From: a plasmid
Strand: one strand, 5' to 3'
Length of the DNA: 64,000 nt
Assembly: GCF_057098645.1 (NCBI RefSeq)
Contig: NZ_JBXSPU010000002.1
Shown here: one piece after another, positions 18,001 through 21,000 of the stretch
Layout: each line of letters opens with the position of its first letter
Position numbering within the stretch: the first letter of the stretch is position 1
Made by a program: the position numbers

Positions 18001-21000
18001 TCCAGAATCGGTCAATACCCGTTTCTTCAAAAAGATTGTTCCATGTCTTACGGTCTATTTGCTGTCGCCCTTCCTCGATGCTTGCGGCCAGGGACGCAGG
18101 AAGGCCAAAAGCATTAGGGGCCATAATTTTGCTGTTAAACAGTGAAAACCCGCAAATTGCTGAGGCTTCGGCAATCAGCGTCATGCCGTCCAGAAATTTT
18201 TGCATAGCGGCATCACGACTACTGGCGAGTTGTTCGGTACGGGTACTCAACTTCAGTTCCGGCTGCGAATTCATGCTCATTTCACGATCCTTTTCCCACT
18301 GTTTTGGCTGAGAGATTTTCACTGGCCTATCCACCTCTCTAGTTAAAAAAATTCTCGTAGCGTCATTTATAGTAACGCCTTTACTAATGACTAATGATGA
18401 AAAAGATTAGCACACAGATGTCGGGTGACCAACAACCCGCAACCCGTTAAGTGGCGATCGCATTCCCTGAATGCACAACCATTGAGCTATATGACTGATT
18501 AATACGGTTTTTATCCGCAATTACACTATGAGGGGGGCTATGTGTACTATGGGATTTACCCCGAATTAAATCCCATAGTACATAAAATGAACTAAATAAA
18601 GCCGAAAAACGTGACGGTGTCACCTCTGGGGTGTTTATTTTGGTATCTAGTTATTAGTAAAGGCATGACTAAATGTATAATGGGGTAGTCGTTTACGTTT
18701 AGGGCTTCCTCTTTGTCGTTATGGCGGATGAGGGGCTGTTACGATAGTTAGACAGTGATTACACACATTTGGCTGAGGGCTACAAAATGGCGGCGTCGCG
18801 AATTACACACCTAATAACGTCCTGTACCAAAGGTAAGCACAGCCAGTGCGGCTCCATGCCAGAACTGAGTATCCGGTCTGGACAGACACCAGAAGAGGCA
18901 ATGTCCAGCTGGGCAGCAACGATTAAACGGTCGCAAAGTGCTTCACCGGTACCGGCCCTGTCGCTCTATGCCGGTAATCACTGGTCAACGGCAAAAGAGA
19001 TATTACGGACAACTGAGAACCTGGAGTTGTGGGTGATCTCGGCCGGGTTGGGTTTTTTGAATAGTCGTGACCTCGTGGACGCTTATGAAGCCACCTTTCA
19101 TGATTTACCGTTCAGTCACCGACAATGGTGGCGGGAATTAACAAATACATTCGGGAAAGAAAGGACGGCGAAATCTATTGAGACATTGATGGCAGCAAGA
19201 CCTTTCGATGATTATGTTATCGCTGCCTCCCCCGTTTATATCGAGGCGACGGAGGATGATATCCTGGCAGGGGCAAGCAAATTAAATAATCACATTGCCC
19301 AGTTGACGGTTGTAACGTCAGGGGAATATTCTGGACTACTTGAATCCTATTTAATTCGTAGCGAATCCCGTATGATGCGCCAACTATCAAGCAACATGGT
19401 ATGTCTTAACATCAAACTTGCTCAATATATTATTGGAAGTCGGCGCTATTCATGAACCGCACTGATGATTCCATAACGCAACTATCTTCACTTTATGAAC
19501 GGCTCGGAGCTGTGGCTCATGAACTGGAATATTGTAAAATTCTGCTCCCTGAACACTCTGAACAACTGGATCTTGATGCCGCAGCAACATATGCAATGAT
19601 GCTCCGCATTGAACAGTGGGCAGCAAACGTTAAGAACGCATATAATACCAACACATACGACCCTTTCCATATTAACGAAAAGGACAAACAACTAAGAAAT
19701 CAAGAGGAAGAAAATCAATATTAAAAGGTCTCTCCAGTAACCGAAAGTAATAATCGCATGAGACAGACGGCGATTTTATCTAATCTTGCGGAGTTGGCAC
19801 TACAGAGGAACTGGCAAGTGATAATGCATTTGTTTCCATACGCGGGGTGGTTAATGTCTTTAGGTACCAATGATTGATATCATGCGCCCAGAAAATCTTA
19901 CGCGTCTAGCTGGCTCAAAATAATAAAAGAGTGTAATATCGCAAAGTATTCTATTGATTTTATTTATTACTCTTAGTGAGGTCATATGTCCGAAGCACTC
20001 AAATCATTAAACAACATTCGTACTCTTCGTGCGCAGGGCCGTGAACTGCCGTTAGAGATCCTTGAAGAACTGCTGGAAAAATTAAGCGTTGTTGTTGAAG
20101 AACGACGTCAGGAAGAATCTTCAAAAGAAGCTGAGCTGAAAGCGCGTCTGGAGAAGATTGAATCCCTGCGTCAATTAATGCTTGAAGATGGAATTGACCC
20201 TGAAGAGTTACTGAGTTCTTTCTCTGCAAAGTCCGGAGCACCTAAAAAAGTTCGCGAACCGCGCCCTGCGAAATATAAATACACTGATGTTAATGGTGAA
20301 ACGAAAACCTGGACTGGCCAGGGGCGTACCCCTAAAGCACTGGCCGAACAACTTGAAGCCGGTAAAACACTGGATGATTTCCTCATCTAAGTTGAAATTA
20401 AAATCGCGAACAGCTCAGTTCAAAAGCCACTTTTCAGTGGCTTTTCTTATTAAGCCTATGTTTAGGAATATTCAAATAATCTAGGGTTTAATGACAATTG
20501 TTTTGCCATCAGGTAGATAAACCCCTATTAAACGAAGGACAAAACCACGCCAACCAGAATTTGCTTCCTTTATGCAGCGATACAGTTCGTTATTTTCACT
20601 TTTCAGTTTATTCCATTCAAGAAAAAGAGATCTCCGGATCTAACTCTGAGATGTGTTTCACTTCGTTGTTTATGCGTACAGTATTGATACCATTCCCAGT
20701 CATAAAAAGTCACCGTAGGTTTGATAAACAGGTTGAACATTGACAAAACTACTTTGTAGTAAGCTTTATCAAATTCAATTCTAAATCAGTTCTAAGTTAT
20801 TTGATGGCAGATATAACCGACAATTAGGAAAAAGGTGATGCCGACATATATCATCGTTAATTGAAGCGTACATGGCATATCTTGTTCTTTCGGGATTTTT
20901 ACTCTATTGCCTCTTAGGTGATGCTGCCAACTTACTGATTTAGTGTATGATGGTGTTTTTGAGGTGCTCCAGTGGCTTCTGTTTCTATCAGCTGTCCCTC

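Follow-up and report, generated by a model that had tools for sequence, protein, structure and literature searches.

A conserved inverted repeat of IncHI plasmids as a candidate core site for a Cre-family recombinase

A long inverted repeat that lies between two divergent gene sets is, by sequence comparison, the best-conserved piece of its intergenic region in IncHI1 and IncHI2 resistance plasmids. Our best reading, at about even odds, is that this repeat serves as core site for a site-specific recombination system of the Cre/lox type that belongs to the IncHI backbone. Its layout points to a recombinase core site, and so do the Cre-family enzyme that the backbone encodes and the crossovers that map inside the repeat. 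By analogy with known systems, the purpose of such a lox-like site would probably be multimer resolution.

In typhoid Salmonella, IncHI1 and IncHI2 plasmids are carriers of multidrug resistance; in Enterobacteriaceae of livestock and humans, they also bring in mcr-1 and tet(X4), two genes for last-resort resistance. If the repeat is a recombinase site, it would supply a defined, testable mechanism by which these large plasmids stay monomeric, as well as a mechanism for the formation of cointegrates and chimeras, including a published laboratory fusion of an mcr-1 and a tet(X4) plasmid at exactly this repeat. It would also yield a natural Cre-type enzyme and target pair from clinically important plasmids, one in which the site is remote and an SOS switch is possible. 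Even as an operator only, it would be the best conserved of the control elements in the part of the plasmid that codes for a 'stealth' H-NS protein.

The repeat, its setting and its conservation

The DNA analysed here is a 64,000-nt plasmid stretch (GCF_057098645.1, contig NZ_JBXSPU010000002.1), referred to below as the window; it belongs to an R27-like IncHI1 tet(X4) plasmid of 190 kb in total. The repeat and the genes around it are as follows.

18543-18582, no strand: main inverted repeat, with arms 18543-18558 and 18567-18582 and spacer 18559-18566
17468-18334, minus strand: DUF4942 gene, the first gene of the leftward set, missing from the plasmid gene table
18787-19455, plus strand: DUF6884 gene, first in the rightward operon, with a conserved start at ATG 18787 (222 aa)
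19452-19724, plus strand: 90-aa ORF, with no homologue detected in the IncHI2 operon
19986-20390, plus strand: plasmid H-NS family gene, downstream of the DUF6884 gene and in the same orientation

A preliminary description of this DNA had placed a perfect 15-bp inverted repeat at 18544-18581 (GTACTATGGGATTTA ccccgaat TAAATCCCATAGTAC), in an AT-rich, divergent intergenic region. The repeat is confirmed, and a repeat finder lengthens the arms by one base on each side, to 16 nt each with 100% complementarity and 8 nt between them. The setting is likewise borne out: the intergenic region (18335-18786) has 40.7% G+C versus 48.2% for the window, and it separates a split DUF4942 gene, read leftward, from the DUF6884, 90-aa and H-NS genes, read rightward. 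The DUF4942 gene is broken here into two ORFs (17825-18334 and 17468-17818) and is unbroken (284 aa) in related plasmids. The DUF6884 gene starts neither at TTG 18769, as the '228-aa' ORF would, nor at 18901, the start annotated in a matching plasmid record; the motifs CxxxK and LSAxxG in its product are those of a YaaA-like family, and Pfam curators have suggested a role in DNA repair for that family. A further neighbour encodes a coiled-coil protein. No regulator family was matched by these neighbours (DUF4942, the coiled-coil protein, DUF6884 and the 90-aa ORF).

The main repeat is far beyond chance. When the 64-kb window was resampled 20 times with a first-order Markov model, loops of 0-20 nt being allowed, the longest perfect inverted repeats measured 9-13 bp, and 15 bp was reached in none of the 20. 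The sole other repeat of like quality in the window lies at 9910-9942. There is one copy of the main repeat per plasmid, with no second copy on the whole 190-kb plasmid, and a half-site search of the window, an idea of the preliminary description, returned no other copies beyond chance. The arm sequence TGGGATTTA occurs 12 times on the whole plasmid, three times in IS26 and several times inside genes, but never with a partner arm. An intrinsic (Rho-independent) terminator, which had already been judged less likely, is rejected: the stem is not G+C-rich (37.5% G+C over 18543-18582) and has no U-tract, no T-run follows it on either strand, and a terminator scan did not flag the repeat.

Conservation is concentrated in the arms. 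IncHI1 and IncHI2 share 53% identity across the intergenic region. Identity over 30 nt is highest (93%) at 18547-18576, the core common to both groups, CTATGGGATTTAC-N4-AATTAAATCCCAT; its two halves, each an arm plus the adjacent spacer bases, are the two longest identical runs of the comparison. Among nine haplotypes, the spacer varies at positions 2, 4 and 5 only, and the arms vary at positions 10 and 11 but nowhere in positions 1-9. The conserved core pairs as 12-8-12 in IncHI1 and over 10-12 bp in IncHI2, and at arm position 11 a G/A mismatch is present in pHCM1 and in a metagenome copy (L073); perfect pairing over 16 bp is lineage-specific. Between IncHI1 and IncHI2, flanks of only about 53% identity surround two unchanged arms, and the comparison supports a functional, sequence-constrained palindrome of the kind recognised by a symmetric protein assembly.

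A genome scan (9-bp arms, 6-10-bp gap) returned 59 loci, which were unrelated hairpins save for two IncHI2 contigs, and a metagenome scan returned seven IncHI contigs. No similar repeat was found in distant relatives, namely a Klebsiella plasmid with a DUF4942 protein of 30% identity and DUF6884 loci at 40-53% identity. Template-switch correction of quasi-palindromes, instead of selection, is a possible source of the perfection of the window copy and of a compensatory change in one IncHI2 haplotype (L078).

Recombinase and crossovers

The main repeat has the layout of lox-type sites, with inverted arms of about 13 bp and an asymmetric spacer of 6-8 bp: the 13-8-13 reading occupies 18546-18579 and is perfect in the window, and the 8-bp spacer, CCCCGAAT, is asymmetric. 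As in such sites, constrained arms surround a variable central spacer in the nine haplotypes, and a Cre-family recombinase with intact catalytic residues is encoded on the same replicon.

55130-56311, plus strand: Cre-family tyrosine recombinase gene (393 aa) of the IncHI backbone, candidate enzyme for the main repeat
55096-55111, plus strand: LexA-box-like sequence CTGTAAATAAAAACAG, 19 bp before the recombinase ATG

Among proteins of solved structure, the best relatives of this recombinase are P1 Cre chains (phmmer on PDB sequences, E 6e-23), with both domains aligned. The protein is identical (100%) in R27 and 64% identical in IncHI2. All three homologues, from IncHI1, IncHI2 and pNDM-TJ03, retain the motifs TLLRSAE..RIR, YRTKS, WTGHSVRVGGA, GNWS and RYIRN, which shows the catalytic motifs to be intact. 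The LexA-like box lies just downstream of a candidate promoter (TTCATA 55065-55070, 17 bp, TAAAAT 55088-55093); its CTG-N10-CAG core is kept in IncHI2, and the pNDM-TJ03 block has one mismatch to CTGT-N8-ACAG. From this box we infer SOS control of the recombinase, whose predicted target is the main repeat. Among the papers available to the search, none described a Cre-like system in IncHI plasmids.

The usual arrangement, a site beside its recombinase gene, does not hold for the main repeat: about 13 kb lie between it and the gene in R27, and in the window the distance is about 36 kb. No inverted repeat was found in the conserved hha-recombinase spacer of R27, no lox-type inverted repeat within 12 kb of the IncHI2 recombinase gene, and no lox-like site beside the recombinase gene in pNDM-TJ03. 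This absence of a nearer site counts in favour of the main repeat as the target. IncHI1 has a second 13-8-13 repeat (window 48504-48537) nearer the recombinase gene; it occurs across many plasmid groups, and a search of 25 kb of IncHI2 around that gene did not find it. The main repeat is present in 1,409 plasmid records and the recombinase gene (at least 60% identity) in 1,418, counts that are uninformative as to co-occurrence because both features are plain IncHI1/IncHI2 backbone.

Natural chimeras are shown by their alignments to change parentage inside the repeat, in a mapping that covered a handful of haplotypes picked around it and would miss crossovers elsewhere. L002 and L080 are 57.5% identical to the window to the left of the repeat and 99.5% identical to the right. 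In the IncHI2 haplotypes L088 and L089, the left side has nearly all of 33 'type A' markers, both exceptions being more than 60 nt from the repeat, and the right side has 19 'type B' markers; parentage switches within a 27-bp block that makes up 0.5% of the identity open to homologous recombination (25-bp minimum). L003 has the flanks of L005 over 196 + 229 aligned bases, with its spacer converted at two positions to the IncHI1 type. Overall, the crossovers map to a core of 27-32 bp. A published mating experiment yielded a fusion of an mcr-1 plasmid (IncHI2) with a tet(X4) plasmid (IncHI1), one fusion junction being a 42-bp sequence that is the reverse complement of window 18547-18588; a plasmid of >398 kb was present in 10 of 10 transconjugants screened, and the authors of that study ascribed the junction to homologous recombination (PMC8653826).

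Under a lox-type mechanism, each inverted 12-13-bp arm (ACTATGGGATTTA / TAAATCCCATAGT) would bind one recombinase monomer, and strand exchange would occur in the asymmetric spacer, giving the site a direction. Exchange at this position would make CCCCGAAT x CTCCTAAT pairs recombine poorly and like x like pairs well. In a plasmid dimer, the two copies of the site would form direct repeats, and recombination between them would restore monomers; with two IncHI plasmids in one cell, the same reaction would produce a fusion or a swap of flanks, which would explain hybrids that break exactly at the repeat. Given the LexA-like box, the recombinase may be made mainly in the SOS response, for example after conjugative entry. 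Bound recombinase may also influence both flanking promoters, a secondary operator-like effect.

Against the lox-like reading stand the remoteness of the site, the second 13-8-13 repeat nearer the gene and the attribution of the published junction to homologous recombination. A regulatory site would also be at home in so crowded a control region, with promoters diverging on either side, and a conserved island would force RecA-dependent crossovers between diverged plasmids to fall there, which could account for L002. We offer only tentatively, as a possibility well short of an even chance, the broader scenario in which IncHI1 and IncHI2 share an undescribed Cre/lox-like system that is LexA-repressed and SOS-induced at conjugative entry, resolves multimers, fuses or swaps spacer-matched plasmids, and drives mosaic evolution and the emergence of mcr-1/tet(X4) megaplasmids.

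Alternative readings of the repeat

The intergenic region contains three further palindromes, which bear on a regulatory role.

18370-18386, no strand: palindrome O1, TAGTAACGCCTTTACTA, with the consensus TAGTAAAG-N-CTTTACTA, conserved in IncHI2
18655-18671, no strand: palindrome O2, TAGTAAAGGCATGACTA, another copy of O1 with lower symmetry
18611-18623, no strand: small palindrome GTGAC-N3-GTCAC, 29 bp to the right of the main repeat

O1 lies within the 17-bp spacer of a candidate leftward promoter (-35 TTAGTC 18394-18389, -10 TATAAA 18371-18366, minus strand), and O2 lies between a weak -35 (TTAGTA 18654-18659) and TATAAT (18676-18681) of a candidate rightward promoter; both promoters were assigned by eye, and a consensus scan gave none. 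At up to two mismatches, O1 and O2 are the sole copies on the 190-kb plasmid. The arms of GTGAC-N3-GTCAC are kept in IncHI1 and IncHI2, and its loop is variable. Since both O1 and O2 fall inside -35/-10 spacers of candidate promoters, they would be more natural promoter operators than the main repeat, which is located about 95-125 bp upstream of the rightward candidate -10 and about 170-185 bp from the leftward one.

The main rival, a rather unlikely one, is that the main repeat is instead an operator or auxiliary operator for a dimeric or tetrameric plasmid regulator of the divergent DUF4942 and DUF6884/H-NS promoters, perhaps looping with the promoter-proximal palindromes, with recombination a by-product of the sole conserved island. 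Location in an AT-rich spacer between divergent gene sets agrees with this role, as do arms that are constrained in sequence and not just in pairing, the tolerance of unpaired changes at arm position 11, and the three other conserved palindromes, which clearly mark a control region. The F-plasmid ResD reportedly acts as a repressor too, so that resolvase and repressor roles can coexist. However, the repeat is 95-185 bp from the candidate -10 elements, and it is O1 and O2 that fill the candidate promoter spacers. Neither a second copy nor a regulon exists on the plasmid, the repeat is missing from more distant loci of DUF6884 and DUF4942, and no conserved neighbouring regulator was found, the DUF6884 protein being YaaA-like and the 90-aa ORF absent from IncHI2. 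A 26-34-bp site with an 8-bp spacer is also long for a simple helix-turn-helix dimer. Finally, an operator would leave unexplained both the spacer-only conversion in L003 and the placing of a crossover within just 27 bp, with longer blocks (75-344 bp) on offer.

To the preliminary description, the repeat looked like an operator for a dimeric regulator. The constrained palindrome stands; the operator role as such is unsupported, the repeat being away from the candidate promoters and further half-sites lacking. Both regulators suggested there are poor candidates: the 228-aa protein is the YaaA-like DUF6884 protein with its suggested DNA-repair role, and the 90-aa protein has no IncHI2 counterpart, yet IncHI2 keeps the repeat.

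A hairpin as the functional form, whether a leader RNA stem-loop or a single-stranded DNA hairpin in conjugative entry or replication, is improbable. Folding is strong, with a predicted RNA stem of -25 kcal/mol in the window and -12 to -22 in the other haplotypes and a z-score of -4.0 for the 141-nt context, and one pair is compensatory, being A:T in most IncHI2, G:T in L006 and G:C in L078, where the T-to-C change is the sole difference between L006 and L078 in about 390 bp. That lone change is, however, explicable by template-switch repair of a quasi-palindrome, and mismatches at pair 11 persist in successful lineages. Nine of the ten core pairs are invariant where the flanks are unalignable, which argues for sequence recognition and not pairing alone. 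Rfam 15 gave no match at the repeat up to E = 10, and a U-tract is absent. The candidate promoters lie outside the repeat and face away from it, so it may not be transcribed, and the pairing of O1 with O2 is not concentric with the main repeat, so that a long Frpo-like fold is absent.

We consider it very improbable that the repeat is an extra site, KorB-like, for the P1-type ParB of IncHI Par1, related to the 52/54-bp centromere-like repeats upstream of parA: the left arm and spacer (GTACTATGGGATTTACCCC) resemble the repeat junction GTACCGTGG(C/G)ATTTA(A)CCCC, TGGGATTTA occurs in 2 of about 22 array units, and a 21-bp array core, ATTTAACCCCCTTAATCGCCA, is common to IncHI1 and IncHI2, but a 32-unit array profile (nhmmer) scores the repeat at E = 14 and 3.8 bits, on a par with random sites, IncHI2 arrays do not preserve the GTACCGTGG part, and by our own estimate a match this good is expected about once per plasmid by chance. 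The surroundings of the genes for orphan ParB-HTH proteins of 401 and 385 aa contain no related repeat.

Other candidates were discarded. No conserved small ORF was found across the repeat, and a 6-codon mini-ORF (ATG GGA TTT ACC CCG AAT TAA) was dropped, its IncHI2 form having no ribosome-binding site; third codon bases of this mini-ORF coincide with two of the three spacer positions that vary, for which we calculate a chance probability of about 0.29. Xer sites (dif/cer) have the XerC / XerD arm consensus GGTGCGCATAA / TTATGTTAAAT around a 6-8-bp centre, and the arms of the main repeat (CTATGGGATTTA), compared by eye with this consensus, are unlike it.

Comparison with known systems

Cre/loxP keeps the P1 plasmid prophage monomeric, and loxP lies a few hundred bp from cre. 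The IncHI partition arrays presumably also resemble P1, in the box A / box B motifs of parS (ATTTAAC..TCGCCA). The Cre target is described as 13-bp inverted repeats around an 8-bp spacer (PMC11260471). The main repeat is similar in its 13-bp perfectly inverted arms and 8-bp asymmetric spacer, the IncHI recombinase aligns with Cre over the core-binding and catalytic domains, and in both cases there is one site per low-copy replicon. The systems differ in that the IncHI arms have no sequence similarity to those of loxP and that 13 kb (R27) or about 36 kb (window) separate the site, which lies between divergent promoters, from the recombinase gene. In addition, the recombinase, at 393 aa, has an insertion relative to Cre between the two aligned blocks, and its gene has a LexA-like box.

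Other natural Cre-type sites have been found near their recombinase genes, whereas the IncHI site is remote and embedded in a promoter region. The resemblance extends to Dre/rox, Vika/vox, VCre/VloxP, SCre/SloxP, Nigri/nox and Panto/pox, in which Cre relatives, several of them plasmid- or phage-borne, act on lox-like palindromes. Vika/vox and Nigri/nox with Panto/pox are the subjects of PMC3553980 and PMC4957104. The operators of IncP KorA/KorB are comparable in that a conserved palindrome upstream of divergent promoters is accompanied by promoter-proximal palindromes; in contrast, the IncHI repeat is single-copy, no cognate regulator was found for it, and it is a crossover point.

At the res sites of the Tn3/Tn21 family, hybrid elements switch parentage at a short recombinase core site. 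The same kind of switch is seen in L002, in L088/L089 and in the published fusion, although the Tn3/Tn21 sites are served by serine resolvases encoded alongside. In the F-plasmid ResD/rfsF system, a plasmid tyrosine recombinase resolves multimers at a single site; the repressor role reported for ResD would reconcile the operator and recombination readings of the IncHI repeat.

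The inverted repeat and its surroundings

The inverted repeat at 18543-18582 (hereafter, the main repeat) reads tGTACTATGGGATTTA-ccccgaat-TAAATCCCATAGTACa, with two 16-nt arms that the repeat finder scores as 100% complementary and 8 nt between them. The preliminary description reported a perfect 15-bp inverted repeat at 18544-18581; the repeat is real, and its arms are longer than any perfect inverted repeat (loop 0-20 nt) in 20 first-order Markov resamplings of the window sequence, where the maximum was 13 bp. The same description considered a terminator less likely, and we agree: neither strand has a T-run after the stem, and the terminator scan raised no flag. 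Another inverted repeat at 9910-9942, AACTTATCAGCATTTT-a-AAAATGCTGATAAGTT, also pairs perfectly over 16 bp, around a single central nucleotide, and is equally improbable by chance.

The 2 kb around the main repeat match many IncHI1 plasmids carrying tet(X4) at 100% identity; one of them, pYPE10-190k-tetX4, aligns to the window over nearly the full window length. To the right lie the DUF6884 gene, a 90-aa ORF, and the plasmid H-NS gene; to the left, a 406-aa coiled-coil gene comes next after the following gene:

17468-18334, minus strand: DUF4942 gene, the first gene left of the main repeat, present in the window as two ORFs (169 aa and 116 aa)

In relatives (comparison sequences L002 and L004, and IncHI2), the DUF4942 gene is unbroken (284 aa); the plasmid gene table does not list the split gene, which is probably a pseudogene in the window's lineage. 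The IncHI2 homologue of DUF6884 (58% identity) aligns from the ATG at 18787, which yields a 222-aa protein and follows a GAGGG ribosome-binding site 8 nt upstream. This sets the intergenic region at 18335-18786, and the conserved start is neither that of the previously described 228-aa protein nor the publicly annotated one at 18901 (184 aa). DUF6884 shows the CxxxK and LSAxxG motifs, both readable in the translation, of a YaaA-like 'cantaloupe' fold family for which a role in DNA repair has been suggested by Pfam curators (PMC11701544). In a Brenneria goodwinii contig (L086 5001-8406), a DUF6884 homologue (40% identity) sits beside a TGT-family gene, a DndB-like gene, and an SNF2 helicase, an arrangement reminiscent of 7-deazaguanine DNA-modification (dpd) clusters, and one Klebsiella homologue is labeled 'TgtA5 cluster protein 2' by its source.

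Mobile elements have entered this neighborhood in other plasmids. A Tn7-like transposon (TnsA/B/C/D genes), found in some IncHI2 mcr-1 plasmids, replaces the DUF4942 side about 50 bp left of the palindrome O1 (L003 ~1-5790 and L088 1-1178), and a Tn3-family insertion lies 186 bp right of the main repeat in L006.

Conservation of the main repeat and crossovers within it

Searched alone, the main repeat matched 1,409 plasmid records, almost all of them from large conjugative plasmids of the IncHI1 or IncHI2 groups, and it keeps its position between DUF4942 and the operon of DUF6884; no comparable repeat was found at more distant loci of these two families. When the intergenic region served as the query, homology broke at the main repeat, and some IncHI2 plasmids matched in the 42-bp repeat alone. 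IncHI1 and IncHI2 share 53% identity across the aligned spacer between the genes; the two longest uninterrupted matches between them are CTATGGGATTTAC (18547-18559) and AATTAAATCCCAT (18564-18576), and the 30-nt stretch of highest identity (93%) is 18547-18576. Among nine haplotypes from plasmids, genomes, and metagenomes, arm positions 1-9 are invariant, as are positions 1, 3, and 6-8 of the 8-nt spacer, which varies at positions 2, 4, and 5 (CCCCGAAT, CCCATAAT, CTCCTAAT).

A text search with the arm sequence matched one paper, in which the fusion plasmid pCLDRW_444k arose from a mating between a donor with an IncHI1 tet(X4) plasmid and a recipient with an IncHI2 mcr-1 plasmid, with intI1 and the 42-bp sequence ATTTTATGTACTATGGGATTTAATTCGGGGTAAATCCCATAG at its two junctions; a plasmid >398 kb was present in 10/10 transconjugants screened, and the authors' own explanation was homologous recombination (PMC8653826). 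This junction sequence is the reverse complement of window 18547-18588.

Comparison of few haplotypes, every one chosen around the main repeat, places further crossovers there. Left of the repeat, L002 and L080 share 57.5% identity with the window, against 99.5% on the right, and divergence between the window and L004 changes at the repeat from ~8% to ~25%. Left of the repeat, the IncHI2 sequences L088 and L089 have nearly all of 33 'type A' markers, the two positions unlike L005 both being >60 nt away from it; right of the repeat, they have 19 'type B' markers, as far as +463. The change of type lies within a 27-bp block that holds 0.5% of the crossover weight available between -201 and +808, under a crude rule by which the chance rises with identical length above 25 bp. 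The flanks of L003 equal those of L005 over 196 + 229 aligned bases; its spacer differs from that of L005 at two positions and is the IncHI1 spacer.

A Cre-family recombinase and candidate sites

The plasmid encodes one backbone tyrosine recombinase, of 393 aa (55130-56311, plus strand). Among proteins of solved structure, Cre chains are closest to it in sequence (E 6e-23), with the alignment covering the core-binding and catalytic domains, and the motifs TLLRSAE..RIR, RTK, GHSVRVGGA, GNWS, and RYIRN are present. The R27 protein is 100% identical to it; homologues in an IncHI1B-type plasmid, IncHI2, and pNDM-MAR-type plasmids share 83%, 64%, and 36% identity, respectively, and in each case the gene sits beside hha and a Tus-like gene. 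The conserved hha-recombinase spacer contains no inverted repeat, and no lox-type inverted repeat was found within 12 kb of the IncHI2 recombinase gene. Two elements precede the gene:

55065-55093: candidate promoter, TTCATA-17-TAAAAT, ahead of the LexA-box-like element
55096-55111: LexA-box-like CTGTAAATAAAAACAG (CTGT-N8-ACAG), in a conserved block just before the recombinase ATG

The CTG-N10-CAG core is kept in IncHI2, and the block in a pNDM-MAR-type plasmid has one mismatch; the box suggests SOS control of the recombinase. Relative to pYPE10, the window carries a 1,057-bp insertion (53993-55049) with a 9-bp duplication, GTTGCTGTG, 7 bp upstream of the candidate -35; its inverted ends start GGCTTTGTTGAATAAATC and are IS903-like.

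A scan that covered the complete IncHI1 plasmid, for arms of 13 bp with <=1 mismatch and a 4-10-bp spacer, returned only two 13-8-13 sites, the main repeat and one other:

48504-48537: second 13-8-13 repeat, CTTAATGCTAATG-tatgcgtc-CATTAGCTTTAAG, with one mismatch

Taken by itself, the 32-bp element of this second site has matches in 2,801 plasmid records spread over many groups, IncI1 among them. No recombinase gene is annotated within 3 kb of it in the IncI1 locus examined, and a 25-kb stretch of IncHI2 that surrounds the recombinase gene yielded no copy of the repeat. Its distribution does not follow that of the Cre-family recombinase, and it may be another recombination site.

Possible functions of the main repeat

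We give the main repeat an even chance of being a lox-like core site, at which the Cre-like recombinase of the plasmid would act. This reading is favored because of the 13-8-13 layout with an asymmetric spacer, the fixed arms and free spacer center, the single copy, the presence of a Cre-family enzyme without its own nearby site, and the crossovers and spacer conversion inside the repeat.

The preliminary description suggested that the repeat is an operator for a dimeric regulator. Such a role is less likely but compatible with a lox-like site, as a recombinase bound between two promoters could well affect both. No further copy of the half-site occurs in the window, and the whole plasmid has no second site; none of the nearby genes matches a regulator family. 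The two proteins put forward as regulators do not fit: the 228-aa one is the YaaA-like DUF6884, and for the 90-aa one no homologue was found in the IncHI2 operon. The IncHI1/IncHI2 alignment contains three more conserved palindromes in the intergenic region:

18370-18386, minus-strand promoter context: O1, TAGTAAAG-N-CTTTACTA, within the 17-bp spacer of TTAGTC/TATAAA, by eye
18611-18623: GTGAC-N3-GTCAC palindrome, conserved in IncHI1 and IncHI2
18655-18671, plus-strand promoter context: O2, a second copy of the O1 palindrome, between TTAGTA and TATAAT (18676-18681), by eye

O1 and O2 are the sole sites of their type on the plasmid, and all three palindromes are predicted, as likely, to be operators for some local regulator. 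Because an automatic scan of the region found no promoter, we infer those at O1 and O2. Should these assignments hold, O1 and O2 are the operators close to the promoters, with the main repeat lying 95-185 bp upstream of both.

That the main repeat works as a hairpin is improbable. Perfect pairing over 16 bp is limited, among the haplotypes collected, to the window's lineage, and the outer arm varies, with pair 11 being G/A in pHCM1 and T/T in most IncHI2 copies. One pair is compensated, from A:T through G:T in L006 to G:C in L078, this T-to-C change being the sole difference between L006 and L078 in ~390 bp; it could reflect selection for symmetry or correction of a quasi-palindrome by template switching; the latter would account just as well for the one G-to-T change to which the window copy owes its perfect pairing. 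An IncHI2 hairpin between paralogous 300-aa genes (L091 21030-21068), AGGGATTTCTCCC-ata-GGGAGAAATCCCT, has GGGATTT and CCCATAG in common with the main repeat; the likeness is probably coincidence, or the hairpin a terminator.

A ParB site is very improbable: a profile of 32 units of the 52/54-bp array upstream of parA gives the main repeat E = 14, which places it outside that family. The array repeats TGGGATTTA in ~22 tandem units upstream of parA/parB (L070 36750-37236 and 37820-38611; pYPE10 record 186750-188611, outside the window) and is probably the Par1 centromere. Its invariant 21-bp core, ATTTAACCCCCTTAATCGCCA, is common to 249-bp-period arrays of IncHI2 (L071 873-4343) and resembles P1 parS box A + box B. 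Also outside the window, two orphan ParB-type helix-turn-helix proteins lack a ParA partner (L069 27880-29085, L070 14225-15382), one of their genes adjoining a 558-aa DUF4942-methyltransferase fusion gene, and four overlapping perfect 13-bp inverted repeats of CATAGGGTCACTT upstream of mobI (L069 13375-13475; pYPE10 113375-113475) are presumably part of oriT. The remaining probability falls to functions of the main repeat other than those considered here.

In the literature searched, the main repeat is mentioned solely as a fusion junction, called '42-bp homologous', and no description of a Cre-like system in IncHI plasmids turned up. If the lox-like reading is confirmed, the main repeat and the recombinase would constitute a new Cre/lox-type system.
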